Below, in pieces: positions 1,757-58,587 of a stretch of 64,000 nucleotides of DNA. The stretch is from an uncultured Anaerolineae bacterium. GTDB taxonomy: Bacteria > Chloroflexota > Anaerolineae > VGOG01. The translations under genes and the position numbers were made by a program. Every line of letters begins with the position of its first letter. Position 1 is the first letter of the stretch. The stretch is taken from the NCBI GenBank assembly GCA_964510205.1, contig CAZEBW010000004.1:3638-67637 (forward strand), given 5' to 3'. The notes under the pieces were generated by a model. That model had not been told where the DNA came from. It did not search any database and saw only the letters and a program-made list of their open reading frames with translations.

Positions 1757-1832
1757 GGGGTCAGGGAATCAGGGAATCGGGGAATCGGGGAGCTGATTCT
1801 GATCCCTGATCACTGATTCCTGATTCCCTGGT
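1757..1832. repeat. Heptamer tandem array GGGAATC followed by its reverse complement (foldback-capable)
   Basis: The sequence tcagggaatcagggaatcggggaatcgggga is followed by ctgattctgatccctgatcactgattcctgattccctg. It lies between divergent genes. Confidence 0.8.
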
Positions 1833-1860
1833 CACTTGAGATCGCCAGGAGTTGAGGAAG

Positions 1861-3930
1861 ATGGATGTGGAAAAGCGCATTGAGGAGCTGCGTAAAGAGA
1901 TACGCTATCACAATTACCGCTATTATGTGCTGGACTCCCCCGTCATCAGCGACGCCGAGTACGACCGGCTGATGCGGGAGCTGCGGGAGCTGGAGGCGGC
2001 CCATCCTGAGCTGATTACCCCGCACTCGCCAACCCAAAGGGTGGGCGCCGAGCCGCTGGACAGGTTCGAGAAGGTGCGCCATCCCAAACCGATGCTCAGC
2101 CTGAGCGACGCCTTTGAAGAGGAGGAGCTGTGGGCCTGGCTGGAGCGCATCAGCAAGCTGTTGCCGGAAGGGGTGACTGCAAAGGATTTGCAGTACGTGG
2201 TGGAGCCCAAGATTGACGGCCTGACGGTGGTGCTCACTTATCAGGACGGACGCTACGTTCAGGGCGCGACGCGGGGGAACGGGATCGAGGGGGAGAACGT
2301 CACCGCTAATCTCAAGACCATCAAGGGCGTCCCTCTGCGCATCCCCGTCTCGCCCAACGGCCCGCCGCCGGCCCGTCTGGTGGTGCGGGGCGAGGCTTAC
2401 ATGCCCATTGATCAGTTTGAAGCGTTCAACCGCCGCCAGGCGGAGTTGGACGAGAAGACCTTCGCCAATCCCCGCAACGCCGCCGCCGGCTCGGTGCGCC
2501 AGCTCGACCCCCGCATCACCGCCTCCCGTCCCCTGGCCATCTTCACCTACGCCGTGGTGGATAGCGAGGGCGTTGCGGTCGCCACCCAGTGGGATTCCCT
2601 CCAGTATCTCAAGCACATGGGCTTTCCCATTAACCTCGATAGCCGCTTGCTCCCGGACTTCGAGCAGGTGATAGCCTACTGCCACGAGTGGATGAAGAAG
2701 CGGGATACCCTCAACTACGAAGTGGACGGGGTGGTGGTCAAGATCAACTCCCTGGAAATCCAGGAACACCTGGGGGCCGTAGGCAACGCGCCGCGCGGAG
2801 CGGTGGCCTACAAGTTCCCTGGCCGCGAGGCGACGACCGAGCTGCTGGACATCGGCATCAACGTGGGCCGCACCGGCAGTCTGAATCCCTTCGCCATCCT
2901 GGAGCCGGTGGAAGTGGGGGGCGTGGTCGTCAAGCAGGCGTCCCTACATAACGAAGAAGACATCCACCGCAAGGGCATCCGCATCGGCGACACGGTCACC
3001 GTGCGGCGGGCCGGCGAGGTCATCCCCTACGTGGTGGGGCCTATCGTGGACCTGCGCAGCGGGGAGGAGCGGGTGTTTCACATGCCCGACCGCTGCCCGG
3101 CCTGCGGCGAGCCGGTGGTGAAGCCGGAGGGCGAGGTGGCCCACTACTGCGTCAACGCCGCTTGCCCCGCTCAGTTGGTGCGGCGGGTGGAGCACTTCGC
3201 CTCGCGGGGCGCCATGGACATTGAAGGCTTCGGCTCTCGTCTGGCGCAGCAGTTCGTGGAAGCGGGGCTGCTCAAAGACGTAGGCGATTTCTACTATCTG
3301 CGGCGGGAGGACATCCTGCCTCTGGAAGGCTTCGCCGAGAAGAGCACCGACAATCTGTTGGCCGCTGTCGAGGCTTCCAAGCAGCGGCCGCTGTGGCGGC
3401 TCATCACCGCCCTGGGCATCCGCTTCGTGGGGAGCACCGTGGCCCAGCTCCTGACCGAGCACTATGCCTCCATTGACGAACTGATGGCGGCCACGCAGGA
3501 GGAACTGGAGGCCATCGAGGGGCTGGGGCCGCACACGGCGGGCAGCATCGTGGAGTGGTTTGGGCGGGAGCGGCACCGCGCACTGATCGAGAAGCTGCGG
3601 CGGGCTGGGGTCAGGCCCGTCCTGAGCCGAGGCGAAGGAATGGAGGAGAAGCGAGAAGTCGCAGAGGAGATGCCCCAGACCCTGGCGGGTTTGACCTTCG
3701 TCCTCACCGGCTCTTTGCCTTCCATGAGCCGCGACCAGGCCACGGCGCTGATCGAGCGGCACGGCGGTCGGGTCACGGGCTCCGTTTCTGGCAGAACCGA
3801 TTATCTGCTGGTGGGAGAGGCCCCCGGCGGCGCCAAATATGACAAGGCCCGCGAGTTGGGCGTGGCCTTGATTGGGGAGGCGGAGCTGATGGAGATTGTT
3901 GCAGGCGGGACTACAACGGATTTGGAATAG
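1861..3930 (+). CDS. ligA: NAD-dependent DNA ligase LigA
   Basis: Adenylation motif EPKIDGL, four-Cys zinc finger (CPACGEP...[11 protein letters not shown]), HhH region and C-terminal BRCT. AGGAG lies 9 nt upstream of ATG 1861; the track start at 1852 is a TTG. Confidence 0.97.
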
Positions 3931-3963
3931 AACGGATTGGAGGAAGGAAATCCGTTCTTTTCT
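3930..3963 (+). terminator. Rho-independent terminator after ligA
   Basis: Stem gaacggatt / aatccgttc followed by ttttctt. Confidence 0.6.
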
Positions 3964-3995
3964 TAATCTGTTGTAGTGTTGTTGCGAGGAATGCC

Positions 3996-5183
3996 ATGCC
4001 ACAAGTCGTCCTGAAACGAGGCCGTGAAAAACCTATCCTGAATCGTCACCCCTGGATCTTCTCCGGGGCCATCCAGCGCGTCGAGGGGGAGTGTGATGAC
4101 GGGGATGTGGTGGAGGTGGCCGACCAGCGGGGGCGCTTCCTGGCGCGAGGCTACCTAAACCGCCGCTCTCAGATCGCGGTGCGTCTCCTCACCTGGGATG
4201 AGGACGAGGTCATCGGGACGGACTTCTGGCGGCGTCGGCTGGAGCGGGCCTTCGCCAGCCGGCAGGCCCTGGCCGCTGATCCCTCCACCGACGCCTACCG
4301 CCTGGTCAACGCCGAGTCCGACCTACTGCCCGGCCTGGTTCTCGATCGCTACGGCGATTACCTGGTGGCCCAGTTTCTAACGCTGGGAATCGAGCGGTGG
4401 AAGGCCGAACTGGTTGGCCTGGCGGCTGATCTGCTGCAGCCCAGGGGCGTCTACGAGCGGAGTGACGCGGAGGTGCGGGAGAAAGAGGGATTGGCTGCGG
4501 TCAGCGGCCTGCTGCACGGCGAGCAGCCGCCGGACCTGGTGGACATAATGGAGAACGGCCACCGTTTCTGGGTGGACATAAAGGCGGGGCACAAAACCGG
4601 CTTCTATCTCGACCAGCGGGAGAACCGTGCCAAGCTGACCAGGTACTGTGCGGGCAAAGCGGTGCTCAACGGCTTCGCCTACACGGGGGCTTTCGCCGTC
4701 TACGCCGCTGCGGCGGGGGCGGGGCGCATCACCAATGTGGAATCCTCGGCCGAGGCCCTGGCGCTGGCCCGGCGCAACATGGCCCTCAACGGTTTCGCCG
4801 ACCGCGACGACGGGTACATTGAGGGGGACGTTTTTCAGGTGCTGCGGGGGTATCGCGATCAGGGGCGGACCTTTGAACTGGTCATCCTCGATCCGCCGAA
4901 GTTCGCCCACTCCAAGGCCCAGGTGCAGTCAGCCTGCCGGGGCTACAAGGACATCAACTTGCTGGCCATGCAGCTCCTGGCCCCCGGCGGCGTCCTGGCC
5001 ACCTTCTCTTGCTCAGGCCGGGTGAGCGCCGATCTCTTCCAGAAGGTGCTCTTCGGGGCCAGCGTGGACGCCGCCCGCGATGTGCAGATCATCGAGAAGC
5101 TGTCCCAGTCCTCCGATCACGCCATCCTGCTCACCTTCCCTGAGTCGGAGTACCTGAAGGGGTTTGTGTGTCGGGTGTTTTGA
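3996..5183 (+). CDS. rlmI: Class I SAM-dependent rRNA methyltransferase, RlmI/YccW-like (PUA + MTase)
   Basis: N-terminal PUA-like region, then a SAM methyltransferase core (LNGFAYTGAF, ILDPPKF). GAGGA RBS lies 6 nt upstream of the ATG. Confidence 0.8.
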   Translation: MPQVVLKRGREKPILNRHPWIFSGAIQRVEGECDDGDVVEVADQRGRFLARGYLNRRSQIAVRLLTWDEDEVIGTDFWRRRLERAFASRQALAADPSTDAYRLVNAESDLLPGLVLDRYGDYLVAQFLTLGIERWKAELVGLAADLLQPRGVYERSDAEVREKEGLAAVSGLLHGEQPPDLVDIMENGHRFWVDIKAGHKTGFYLDQRENRAKLTRYCAGKAVLNGFAYTGAFAVYAAAAGAGRITNVESSAEALALARRNMALNGFADRDDGYIEGDVFQVLRGYRDQGRTFELVILDPPKFAHSKAQVQSACRGYKDINLLAMQLLAPGGVLATFSCSGRVSADLFQKVLFGASVDAARDVQIIEKLSQSSDHAILLTFPESEYLKGFVCRVF

Positions 5184-57518: not shown

Positions 57519-57544
57519 ATTTACGGATTTTGCCTCAAGCTGGG

Positions 57545-57600
57545 TAGCTTCAGTAGATCGCGGTCGCTCCCGTTGAATTGCCAAACCGACTGAGCTTGAT
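57545..57600. repeat. Partial copy of the 36865-36960 hairpin element
   Basis: gcttcagtagatcgcggtcgctcccgttgaattgccaaaccgactgagc compared with gcttcagtagatcacagtcgctcgcggtggattgccaaatcc... Confidence 0.6.
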
Positions 57601-57603
57601 CCG

Positions 57604-58539
57604 TTAATCCTGCGAATCCGCCGTTATCCTCCCTAACACTTGCCAATACGACTTAATCCGCGCTGCTCGCAGCGGTCGCTTGTGCCCCACCAGCCACTTG
57701 AGGGCTTCTACGATCAGTTGATAGAAATAGGTGACTAGGATAAACAACCGCAACGCCTCTGCTTGCCACGGGCCGTGATGCTTGCGGAAATAGCGGATTT
57801 TGCTGCGCTGGAATTGGATGTGCTGGAAGGATTTGACCTGCTCGCTCGATTGCCCCCCGTGGTGGACCACTTTGGCCGTGGACAGGTAGATTATCTTCCA
57901 GCCTCGCTCCTGGGCTCGACGGCACCAATCCAATTCCTCAGAGTACATGAAGAAGCCTTCGTCTAGTGGCCCCACCTGTTCGATGGCCTCGCGGCGGGCC
58001 AGCAAGCAGGCTCCAGTGACCCAGTCCACCTCTTGCACCTCGTCGTCCGGGCGGTCTGCGATGTAGTAGCGTCCGGCGACGCGGTTGTGGGGGAACCACT
58101 GCTGCATGATCGTGCTTTCCAGGAAAGCGGTGGTCAGGGTCGGGAAGCGGCGGCGCGAGGACTGGATGCTGCCGTCGGGGTTCAGGAGCTGCGGCCCCAG
58201 CGCGCCCACTTGAGGATGCTCGTCCATGTACTCGACCATCGTCGCCAGCGCGTCGCCGACCACTTCCGTGTCCGGGTTCAGCAGCAGGACGTATCGCCCC
58301 CGGCTGACGGCGATGCCCTGGTTGTTGCCCACGGTGAAGCCCACGTTCTCGCGGTTGGCGATGAGCCGCACCTGGGGGAACTCCTTTTCAACCATCGCTG
58401 CGCTGCCATCTGAGGAAGCGTTGTCTACTACGATGACCTCGAGCCGGAAGTTGGAAGGTGGAAGGTGGAAGATGGAATCGAGACAACGCTTCAGGAGGTC
58501 TCGTACATTCCAGTTCACGATCACAATGGACAGATCCAT
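57604..58539 (-). CDS. Glycosyltransferase family 2
   Basis: LSIVIVNWNVRDLL...VVDNASSDGS...LLNPDTE. Start taken at MDLSIV (ATG 58539); the track start at 58623 lies in a repeat array. Confidence 0.85.
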   Translation of the reverse strand: MDLSIVIVNWNVRDLLKRCLDSIFHLPPSNFRLEVIVVDNASSDGSAAMVEKEFPQVRLIANRENVGFTVGNNQGIAVSRGRYVLLLNPDTEVVGDALATMVEYMDEHPQVGALGPQLLNPDGSIQSSRRRFPTLTTAFLESTIMQQWFPHNRVAGRYYIADRPDDEVQEVDWVTGACLLARREAIEQVGPLDEGFFMYSEELDWCRRAQERGWKIIYLSTAKVVHHGGQSSEQVKSFQHIQFQRSKIRYFRKHHGPWQAEALRLFILVTYFYQLIVEALKWLVGHKRPLRAARIKSYWQVLGRITADSQD

Positions 58540-58587
58540 TCTAACCTTCGACCTCCAATCTCCAACCTCTAACCTCCAACCTCCATT
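58446..58587. repeat. Inverted heptamer arrays GGAAGGT/GGTGGAA and CCTCCAA bracketing the GT2 start codon
   Basis: ggaagttggaaggtggaaggtggaagatgg (58446-58476, in the CDS, encoded as HLPPSNFRLE) and ccttcgacctccaatctccaacctctaacctccaacctcc (58545-58585, in the 5' leader). Confidence 0.8.

Follow-up and report, generated by a model that had tools for sequence, protein, structure and literature searches.

In-frame heptanucleotide repeat arrays in an envelope glycosylation gene cluster of uncultured Anaerolineae

Short tandem arrays, mostly of 7-nt units, are found in a 64,000-nt stretch of DNA from an uncultured Anaerolineae bacterium (GTDB lineage Bacteria; Chloroflexota; Anaerolineae; VGOG01), corresponding to positions 3,638 to 67,637 of the forward strand of contig CAZEBW010000004.1 (assembly GCA_964510205.1) and hereafter termed the window. 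These arrays keep the reading frame inside genes, change in place by whole units and pile up in one gene cluster. The host is a metagenome-assembled genome (MAG) of the Anaerolineae, and all close homologues and loci are likewise from Anaerolineae or Chloroflexota MAGs. The part of the window rich in arrays is a gene cluster for envelope glycosylation, containing three tandem GT39-type paralogues (PMT_2/DUF2142) on the minus strand, named GT39a (38882-40990), GT39b (40987-43332, start codon at 43332) and GT39c (43584-45926, 780 aa). GT39c finds a 100% match among NCBI sequences, its homologues are labelled Anaerolineae or Chloroflexi by the hundred, and all 76 GTDB loci retrieved with it (76/76) are Chloroflexota MAGs. 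Further members of the cluster, also on the minus strand, encode a 1103-aa PMT_2 protein (45923-49234), a Wzy_C protein (36974-38437), one GT4 (56100-57305) and one GT2 (likely start 58542). Arrays also occur near or within the genes for NAD-dependent DNA ligase (ligA; 1852-3930), FolC (folC; 28124-29482), a GH99-like protein (29503-31119) and enolase (34906-36216, with the ribosome-binding site (RBS) GGAGG).

Arrays were detected with Tandem Repeats Finder (TRF) plus a lag-match scan, using strict and relaxed thresholds. The strict scan of the window returned 8 period-7, 2 period-8 and 7 period-14 (double-unit) arrays and none at periods 4-6, 9-13 or 15, and 20 dinucleotide-preserving shuffles gave no arrays at any period. 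With relaxed thresholds 23 segments were recovered (19 period-7, 4 period-8), compared with 0-2 in 10 shuffles, and periods 4-6 and 10-11 stayed empty. The original prediction, made from the sequence of the window, had counted at least 18 arrays of 7-8 nt units and named enrichment over shuffles as a check; the count is borne out, essentially all of its coordinates being matched by the two methods, and the enrichment is confirmed in the window. Only periods 7, 8 (and 14) are over-represented there, and the 76 GT39 loci (1.17 Mb) show the same period specificity, with 151 period-7 arrays against 1-9 at every other period. The arrays are short (3-9 copies) and imperfect (TRF matches of 61-100%, mostly 76-96%), and the 7-nt units are repeated in tracts longer and more numerous than composition predicts, as in prokaryotic long simple sequence repeats (SSRs; 5-11 nt units).

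Outside and between genes, several arrays occupy leader positions. Just upstream of ligA, an 8-nt array of TCAGGGAA/GGGGAATC units (1761-1791, plus strand, 3.9 copies) forms the left arm of a hairpin (z -4.5) and is followed by its inverted partner, a 7-nt CTGATCC/CTGATTC array (1799-1839, plus strand), as the right arm; a GGGAATC array had been claimed at 1757-1832, which stands except that the unit of the left arm is 8 nt and not 7 nt. The left arm is the only array with four G3-4 tracts (8-nt spacing, ~60 nt upstream of ligA), the other families being G-poor; in the G-quadruplex-forming GGGNATC repeats of Xanthomonas and Nostoc, at least four G3 tracts follow at 7-nt spacing in intergenic DNA, no more than 50 nt from an ORF. 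Two lone plus-strand arrays are unfolded, namely a TTTCACG array (27919-27973, 7.6 copies; z -0.7) in the intergenic DNA ~150 nt upstream of folC, and an 8-nt TTCGTAGA array (34818-34880, 7.9 copies; z +2.7, less structured than shuffles) in the intergenic DNA upstream of the enolase RBS. A further 8-nt TTCGTAGA array on the minus strand (38452-38517, 8.2 copies), with a short inverted arm (38539-38561; z -3.4 for 38452-38561), lies directly 5' of the Wzy_C gene RBS. Nearby, a GTTTCAC array (38558-38579, minus strand, 3.1 copies) encodes ...VKRET followed by the TGA at which the full-length ancestral frame of GT39a stops; the array was rightly noticed (38555-38580), but what had been taken as intergenic is the ancestral GT39a C-terminus and stop. 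A GGTTGTA array reported at 38405-38427 amounts to a weak match of ~2 units.

The GT39a open reading frame (ORF) is itself cut by an in-frame TAA within a 24-nt x3.1 tandem repeat (AA*SYDVE / AASSYDVA / AASSHDVA; 38817-38891, minus strand). Past this codon a further 106 codons stay open (38563-38990 region), which are 49% identical to the GT39c C-terminus (E = 7e-20), and the downstream frame ends at the TGA within the CGTGAAA array at 38558-38579. The TAA represents a nonsense mutation of recent date, a polymorphism between strains or else a sequencing error. In folC, a housekeeping gene, a perfect 14-nt x2.4 tandem repeat (ACGAGTACCGAGGG; 28862-28895), translated TSTEGRVPRDE, is absent from the original list.

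Around 16 of the 23 window arrays lie inside ORFs (relaxed scan, after corrections), and across the window and its relatives 189 of 224 arrays fall inside long open frames, so the set is not predominantly intergenic as STRR (short tandemly repeated repetitive) sequences are. In the GH99-like gene, an ACGTCAA/CGTGAAA array (29535-29589, plus strand, 7.9 copies) provides codons 12-29 (peptide RKTSSVKRETSNVERQ). All remaining arrays are on the minus strand. Residues 215-240 of GT39a are encoded by four copies of CAATACG followed by 6.7 copies of the reverse complement GCGTATT (40268-40350), giving the peptide NTQYEIRNTQYATR-RLF-VLRIAYYVL and an RNA hairpin of -46 kcal/mol (z -5.1). A GTCCTAC array (4.6 copies) and its near-inverted partner GGACCTA (4.6 copies; 40951-41023, z -4.4) encode the GT39b C-terminus and the GT39a N-terminus, flanking the ATGA stop/start overlap of these genes (40987-40990), which is located at the hairpin tip. 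GT39b additionally holds a GGTTGTA array (41780-41815, 5.1 copies) at residues ~507-518 (NLQPTTYNLQPG), a loop hot spot of the C-terminal domain, and a short TCCATAG/GTCCTAG array with an inverted GGACCTA partner (43328-43375) at and just upstream of its start. Three arrays are found in GT39c: TGGGTAT (44369-44402, 4.9 copies) at residues 509-520 (IPNTQYPIP), in a low-confidence loop between two beta strands; GCGGTTT/GCGATTT (45234-45289, 8 copies) at residues 214-231 (ITNRKPQIANRKPQTANR), between two transmembrane helices; and AGGTTGT (45885-45915, 4.4 copies) at codons 5-14 (LKSRTYNLQP), adjoining the ATGA overlap at 45923-45926. With both ATGA overlaps inside or beside arrays, the earlier remark that repeats supply the N- and C-termini of ATGA-coupled genes holds. 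The 1103-aa PMT_2 protein carries a mixed GGAAGTT/GGAGATT/GGAGGTT array (46411-46463) at residues 925-940 (NFKIQPSNLQSPTSDF). GT4 contains a GTTGGAG array (56582-56599, 2.6 copies) at residues 237-241 (TSNLQ), where orthologues have longer CAATCTC/CAACCTC arrays, and an inverted pair comprising an AAGGGAC/AGTGAC arm and a TCCCTAG arm (57113-57182, z -4.2) at residues 43-64, where relatives have AAACCCG-type arrays. Finally, a GGAAGGT array (58446-58477, 4.6 copies) encodes GT2 codons ~22-32 counted from the likely start (SIFHLPPSNF), and an AACCTCC array (58543-58585, 6.1 copies) lies in the GT2 5' untranslated region (UTR); pairing of the two (z -3.4) would enclose the GT2 RBS and start codon. 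The array predicted at 58446-58587 is therefore present, with its segment 58543-58585 moved out of the coding sequence, the Pfam GT2 domain beginning at ORF residue 32.

The evidence indicates that the arrays inside ORFs are translated. Translations of the ORFs contain NTQYEIRNTQYATR, NRKPQIANRKPQTAN, NLQPTTYNLQPG, IPNTQYPIP, LKSRTYNLQP and others, and in an alignment of 23 orthologues and two paralogues the repeat peptides are indel hot spots with well-conserved flanks in the same frame. Spacing between the conserved motifs across three such hot spots is a multiple of 3 in 39/39, 27/27 and 25/26 copies (91/92 in total), as measured on DNA of genome contigs not selected by gene calling, even as the hot spots vary in length from 93-195 nt, 27-105 nt and 123-156 nt respectively (2- to 4-fold variation overall). 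Frame is hence preserved, and the 7-residue periodic peptides that had been read from the window are borne out by the translations. In the 29535 array, CGTGAAA is replaced by CGTCAAA (GTG to GTC) at the sole position where CGTGAAA would give an in-frame TGA. The AlphaFold model of GT39c has a mean predicted local distance difference test (pLDDT) score of 74.9, and the residues with pLDDT <50 (1-11, 220-223 and 514-517) fall in three repeat-encoded segments between secondary-structure elements; a fourth low-pLDDT stretch (438-448) is a 7-aa duplication (RRFAYKN/RRFAYTK) and not a demonstrated 7-nt-periodic segment. In GT4, the segment that holds the 57113-57182 pair has 46-51 residues in array-free relatives compared with 57 in the array clade, i.e. 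a loop 6-11 residues shorter. The sense strand is biased within ORFs: 132 arrays have C>G and 58 have G>C, with mean hydropathies of -0.80 and +0.37 respectively. As C/A-rich and G/T-rich strands differ in this way, an inverted pair tends to yield a hydrophilic loop from one arm and a hydrophobic stretch from the other, as where NTQYEIRNTQYATR precedes VLRIAYYVL.

Comparison with the syntenic loci of relatives (L002-L005) reveals that the arrays turn over at orthologous sites. These loci contain only period-7 arrays, at 10-16 per 12-22 kb, often at the same sites as in the window (loops, termini and gene junctions), with differing units and copy numbers; this comparison had been proposed as a check on the original prediction. 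The loop after one transmembrane helix of GT39c is illustrative: the window has 8 AAATCGC/AAACCGC units, L002 has 5 (21 nt, or 3 units, shorter), L004 has AAAGTTC/AAAGCCC/AAAGCTC units, L005 has 4 AAATCGC units followed by a second array (ATTGGGT ATTGGAT ...), and a paralogue in L004 retains approximately one unit only. The second array of L005 has grown from the proto-repeat AATTGGGTATTG, which is present in L004, and indels of 21, 18 and 39 nt between these two loci (89% identical) are located in arrays. Whole-unit copy-number change in place is thus seen both between the window and L002 and between L004 and L005. Unit type shifts along some arrays, e.g. from AATCTAC to AATCTCC to AATATCC, and arrays of the same family share no common sequence outside the arrays themselves. 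The arrays grow and decay in place by whole units, and not by insertion of mobile elements. A larger mobile element carrying the arrays was also considered and rejected, given that same-family arrays have no common flanks.

The arrays are restricted to a clade and concentrated in a cluster. In the window, the glycan cluster holds 17 arrays in ~14.8 kb (1.15/kb), compared with 6 in ~49 kb elsewhere (0.12/kb). In 19 close-relative loci (284 kb), densities by gene class are 0.84/kb in GT39-homologous DNA (142 arrays, 169.5 kb), 1.10/kb in GT4 (8 arrays, 7.3 kb), 1.38/kb in GT2 (5 arrays, 3.6 kb) and 0.34/kb in Wzy (4 arrays, 11.7 kb), falling to 0.03/kb in DNA without homology to window proteins, intergenic DNA included (2 arrays, 75.7 kb), and to 0 in LVIVD, IspB, enolase and TatD genes (0 arrays, 13.7 kb together). 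Metagenome LigA neighbourhoods have 0.044/kb among relatives with at least 70% LigA identity (137 kb) vs 0.001/kb among distant ones (716 kb). Among GT39 loci, those of relatives sharing at least 55% GT39 identity mostly have 2-10 arrays per 10 kb, and the majority of remoter Anaerolineae with the same gene cluster have 0. The clade-wide background is low, with a pile-up of ~20-fold in the envelope glycosylation cluster. The arrays had been called pervasive; they are not so genome-wide, given 0.84-1.4/kb in GT39/GT4/GT2 genes of relatives vs 0.03-0.04/kb in other DNA of the clade.

A stretch of the window at 11.3-26.4 kb, which has a lower G+C content (0.50-0.55) and encodes CHAT, GAF and response-regulator signalling proteins, was correctly noted to have no arrays. 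The native DNA at 46.5-56.5 kb and 59-64 kb is likewise array-free, so the gap is not distinctive, and its use as a clue to array age was dropped on these grounds. Within this stretch, a gene for a 1245-aa multi-GAF histidine kinase (20456-24193) contains two 300-nt segments (21342-21641 and 21882-22181) that are 100% identical and 540 nt apart, reflecting either a very recent internal domain duplication or assembly collapse/expansion. At 53849-56140, a 763-aa protein comprises ~13 copies of a 126-nt (42-residue) LVIVD beta-propeller-type repeat and a Thr/Pro-rich C-terminal tail, which accounts for the period-126 TRF match.

The unit repertoire is narrow. The 224 arrays reduce to 78 canonical units of 1172 possible, and the top seven families make up 105 arrays: AATATCC (26), AATACCC (20), AACCTCC (14), AACTTCC (13), AAACGTG (12), AAATCTC (10) and AATGACC (= TTGGTCA; 10). 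The TTGGTCA arrays of relatives share what we take to be the unit of STRR2. A single network of single-base steps joins 73 of the 78 units, with 131 edges; the maximum over 600 controls (random, GC-matched or genomic 7-mers) is 101. At 2-4 G+C of 7, the units are A/T-rich, the genome having ~59% G+C. Of the 23 window arrays, ~15 belong to five unit families and lie at non-homologous sites. Filtering by stop codons was tried as the cause of this narrowness and rejected, as 592 of the 1172 classes are stop-free on both strands. In having dispersed heptanucleotide arrays drawn from a small set of unit families, the set resembles STRR sequences.

Six array/reverse-complement pairs are present (1761-1839, 38452-38561, 40268-40350, 40951-41023, 57113-57182, and 58446-58477 with 58543-58585). 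That arrays followed by their own reverse complement can fold back, as foreseen, is supported by their predicted stabilities as RNA (-35 to -57 kcal/mol, z = -3.4 to -5.1). No known structured RNAs were found in the window by Rfam at gathering thresholds or by ARAGORN. A conserved regulatory hairpin at the GT2 start was rejected, since the z-score of -3.8 in the window compares with -0.9 in L002 and -1.3 in L005, neither of which has a comparable fold. Perfect inverted repeats that are not heptamer arrays occur at 42156-42239 in GT39b (ATGTGTCATTGCGAG...CTCGCAATGACACAT, 54 nt between arms) and at 39745-39845 in GT39a (AGAAACCAGGTTTTTC...GAAAAACCTGGTTTCT, 69 nt between arms); both match insertions unique to their own paralogue (...VSLRAKRSNPQAARRRLLRRSAPRND... 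and RFFASFGPKTHQFTNTPNAQGSTVKREKPGFF) and look like small palindromic elements inserted in frame, and the TGTCATTGCGAG motif is found again in 7 relatives' loci. A third small element, CCTGAGC(C/T)T(A/G)(G/C)CGAAGGG, forms in-frame 15-24-nt insertions in relatives' GT39 genes (L004 6623-6640 and 7231-7254; protein P0018, NRKPVLSYVEGSQIS) and encodes ...PELAEG... or ...VLSYVEG.... The 250-nt spacer between GT39c and GT39b has GC-rich palindromic segments (43400-43540, e.g. GTCTACAAAGCCCCCGCTGGGG ... GCCTTTGTACCTGAGCCC), which may be another small repeat element or a terminator.

On balance, though with limited assurance, we regard the arrays as lineage-specific STRR-like heptanucleotide SSRs that are produced by slippage and template switching and filtered by selection on frame and stops. 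They would arise and turn over in place through 7-nt strand slippage on short proto-repeats, and template switching, as the simplest explanation, would generate the reverse-complement partner arrays. Units would drift by point mutation and the variants then spread along the array. Within genes, only length changes that keep the frame would survive, typically 3 units (21 nt, 7 residues), and stop-creating units would be replaced, so that arrays persist as translated low-complexity inserts at permissive sites (both protein termini, loops between helices or in beta hairpins, and gene junctions). Sense arrays rich in C/A would yield hydrophilic loop peptides, and their G/T-rich complements hydrophobic stretches tolerated beside membrane helices. 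On this account the arrays would lack a dedicated function, and they are probably neither ON/OFF switches nor mobile elements. Several observations weigh against it. Slippage throughout the genome, combined with tolerance, does not easily account for 0.84-1.4 arrays/kb in GT39/GT4/GT2 genes alongside 0.03/kb in other DNA of the same loci. The remoter lineages that bear arrays (Thermoflexales and others) also have them mainly in GT39/GT4 genes, with other unit families, and this recurrence suggests a link to the gene family. The window has ~16 same-family pairs vs ~0.2 expected from an even draw of the 1172 classes, a narrowness which points to copying between sites or a sequence-specific process. 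There is also a dimorphic recombination block in GT39c whose left edge is an array hot spot.

This last feature belongs to a wider mosaicism. In GT39c orthologues, identity matrices show almost no correlation from one segment to another (r = 0.05-0.3), and N-terminus, loop, segment and C-domain types assort nearly independently. The single strong block of linkage disequilibrium (LD) extends from columns 250-285, at the loop hot spot, as far as columns 352-384, and the position of its edge at an array fits a role of arrays as recombination junctions, on the strength of one case. Alignment columns ~250-384 (GT39c residues ~215-330) fall into two deep haplotypes, with identities ranging from 39% to 98% compared with ~85% in the rest of the protein; one haplotype has a (TTGGTCA)n array translated LVIGHWSLVI, adjoining a membrane helix, and the haplotypes assort independently of N-terminal and C-domain types.

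These observations lend some weight to the main alternative, possible though doubtful, in which the arrays are contingency-type evolvability tracts, with second-order selection concentrating slippage-prone heptamers in surface-glycan genes so that populations can alter loop length by 7 residues at a time, exchange segments among alleles or paralogues, or silence genes, e.g. under phage pressure. It is favoured by the 20-fold concentration in GT39, GT4, GT2 and Wzy genes, by the presence of arrays with different units in the same gene families of distant lineages, by GT39c mosaicism and the LD-block edge, and by the many arrays within the first 30 codons or 5' UTR (codons 4-30 of GT39a, GT39c, GH99-like and GT2; 5' UTRs of Wzy and GT2), which is where NeuO-type switches lie. 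There is precedent in the AAGACTC repeats of NeuO, which control capsule O-acetylation (PMC13001214), and in the association of envelope genes of pathogens with long SSRs (PMC4679880). The distribution of lengths nonetheless argues against NeuO-type phase switching: the in-frame spacing of 91/92 hot-spot copies leaves no set of OFF alleles comparable to neuO, which is OFF in 65.6% of genomes, and no frameshifted genes were found at arrays of the window and relatives. Between the two consensus assemblies of one strain sampled twice, no array variation was detected; protein pairs at 99.9% identity are free of indels, and those at 93-95% identity show only 0-2 gap events, in a database clustered at 90% identity. 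Being short and imperfect stabilizes the arrays, and in GT39a, the sole disrupted gene, the break comes from a point mutation to a stop codon within a 24-nt repeat and not from heptamer slippage. A more specific version is also on the unlikely side, and slightly more so, namely that heptamer arrays in several Anaerolineae and Thermoflexales lineages are in-frame evolvability modules, kept by second-order selection at fixed GT39/GT4/GT2/Wzy sites, where they supply 7-residue length variants and microhomology junctions for segment swaps between alleles or tandem paralogues. If true, this would represent contingency-like diversification in free-living non-pathogenic bacteria, operating in frame instead of ON/OFF.

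Other explanations fare less well. It is improbable that the arrays serve the cluster as cis-acting elements at the RNA or DNA level, whether as C/A-rich leaders that aid initiation, as RBS-occluding or coupling hairpins, or as sites for a protein that reads 7-nt periodicity. The strong folds of the six pairs, one with an ATGA overlap at its tip and another enclosing the GT2 RBS and start codon, the unstructured lone leader arrays, the retention of array positions across orthologues while sequence turns over, and the binding of heptamer repeats by CspB, as cited in PMC4679880, all accord with such a role. Evidence for regulatory hairpins is nevertheless weak, as the GT2-start hairpin is not kept in L002/L005, both orientations relative to transcription occur, the 189 arrays noted above lie deep inside ORFs, homologous clusters of most Anaerolineae work without arrays, no Rfam match was obtained and no T-runs follow the hairpins. 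Insertion in frame of miniature mobile elements, chiefly as inverted pairs, of the miniature inverted-repeat transposable element (MITE), repetitive extragenic palindromic (REP) or Rickettsia palindromic element (RPE) kind, is very unlikely. Unit families do recur at non-homologous sites, the inverted-pair layout resembles terminal inverted repeats, and genuine palindromic insertions are found in frame in the same genes (42156-42239 and 39745-39845). Set against this, same-family arrays have neither shared flanks nor a fixed length, copy number changes in place by whole units, the second array of L005 arises from a local proto-repeat, many arrays lack an inverted partner and no target-site duplications were seen, such that dispersed copies sharing a full-length consensus, with the terminal inverted repeats and target-site duplications of MITE, REP or RPE sequences, are not found. 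That the arrays are artefacts of assembly or gene calling is hardly credible, even though the source is a short-read MAG and array-rich relatives were recovered mostly on short contigs. Over 27847-31158, which takes in two arrays, an independent Logan assembly (L001) matches at 100% identity, and arrays are identical over 10.8 kb in two JGI samples (one strain sampled twice). In addition, the arrays measure 18-110 nt, most being <70 nt, so that a typical short read, with read lengths presumed, could span most of them; dozens of independent MAGs carry arrays at the same sites; and conserved protein sequence continues on both flanks in the same frame.

The preferred reading, of SSRs turned over by slippage and template switching, has several parallels. 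Cyanobacterial STRR sequences were reportedly described by Mazel in 1990. The arrays of the window are like these and other long SSRs in their 7-nt units in tandem 3-9 times or more, limited unit families, restriction to a lineage and occasional inverted pairs. They differ in having a Chloroflexota host, in their concentration in one cluster instead of an intergenic spread, and in having many related unit families instead of one to three. The original comparison with STRR sequences holds for the type of array; the host is of the Anaerolineae and not a cyanobacterium. Rickettsia palindromic elements are inserted in frame and show, as here, that palindromic DNA is tolerated inside ORFs; these elements have a fixed form and occur as dispersed copies. 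Within ORFs, the repeat units of Borg elements reportedly come in multiples of 3 nt. As with Borg tandem repeats (PMC9879509), fast-forming repeats add low-complexity or disordered protein segments without destroying the protein, but the 7-nt unit takes every array here through all three frames.

Among long SSRs, heptanucleotides form the most frequent class in many prokaryotes, and polymerase slippage has been proposed as their origin (Mrazek 2007, as cited in PMC4679880). GGGAATC arrays in Xanthomonas and GGGGATT arrays in Nostoc lie between genes, are rarer than expected in coding DNA and in some cases form inverted pairs (PMC4692102). The window array at 1761-1791 uses the same GGGAATC motif as Xanthomonas; unlike the Xanthomonas and Nostoc repeats, most arrays here are inside ORFs and would be translated. 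TAACTGA arrays of marine Beggiatoaceae and cyanobacteria are located upstream of start codons, and their translation at protein ends has been discussed (PMC4679880); in Geobacter metallireducens, GGACCGG x4 elements are found inside genes as well as in the DNA between them (PMC2700814). Both are lineage-specific arrays near translation starts, as in the window, but each has one dominant unit, is mostly intergenic and has been proposed as regulatory, in contrast to the dozens of related units, mostly coding and turned over at fixed sites, described here. The AAGACTC repeats of Escherichia coli K1 NeuO are translated, with the gene OFF in 65.6% of complete genomes (PMC13001214). Like the present arrays, they are heptanucleotide repeats in the 5' coding region of a surface-glycan-modifying enzyme; translation passes through all three frames to give a peptide with a 7-residue period, and the frame is kept only when the copy number is a multiple of 3. 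The tracts in NeuO are long (3-53 units), are described as repeats of a single unit and switch ON/OFF at high frequency, whereas those of the window are short and imperfect, stable between near-identical strains and scattered over many sites and genes. The earlier remark that no description was known of such repeats systematically in frame in loops and termini of envelope enzymes is, as a claim of no precedent, too strong in light of NeuO (PMC13001214), Geobacter (PMC2700814), TAACTGA (PMC4679880) and the Xanthomonas inverted pairs (PMC4692102). Literature searches for heptamer or heptanucleotide repeats in Chloroflexota (Chloroflexi, Anaerolineae) found no relevant report.

The arrays are a known kind of sequence in a new phylum, and their combination of features is unusual: they are mostly coding and in frame, occupy fixed sites, form a cloud of units and are concentrated in one cluster. 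Simple repeats whose unit is not a triplet are normally purged from coding DNA, the exception being phase-variation switches of pathogens. The clade described here, which is uncultured and environmental, keeps approximately one heptamer array per kb of coding sequence in a glycosylation cluster, with conserved sites and turnover of units. Arrays and hairpins together explain the odd 7-residue periodic peptides of metagenomic proteins, such as NIQYPIS, LVIGHWS and NLKSQIS. The cluster provides a natural system for the creation of protein segments by 7-nt slippage, including loops, termini and membrane-adjacent hydrophobic stretches, and can show what makes heptamers the preferred unit of long repeats in bacteria and whether contingency-like evolution of surface glycans exists outside host-associated bacteria.

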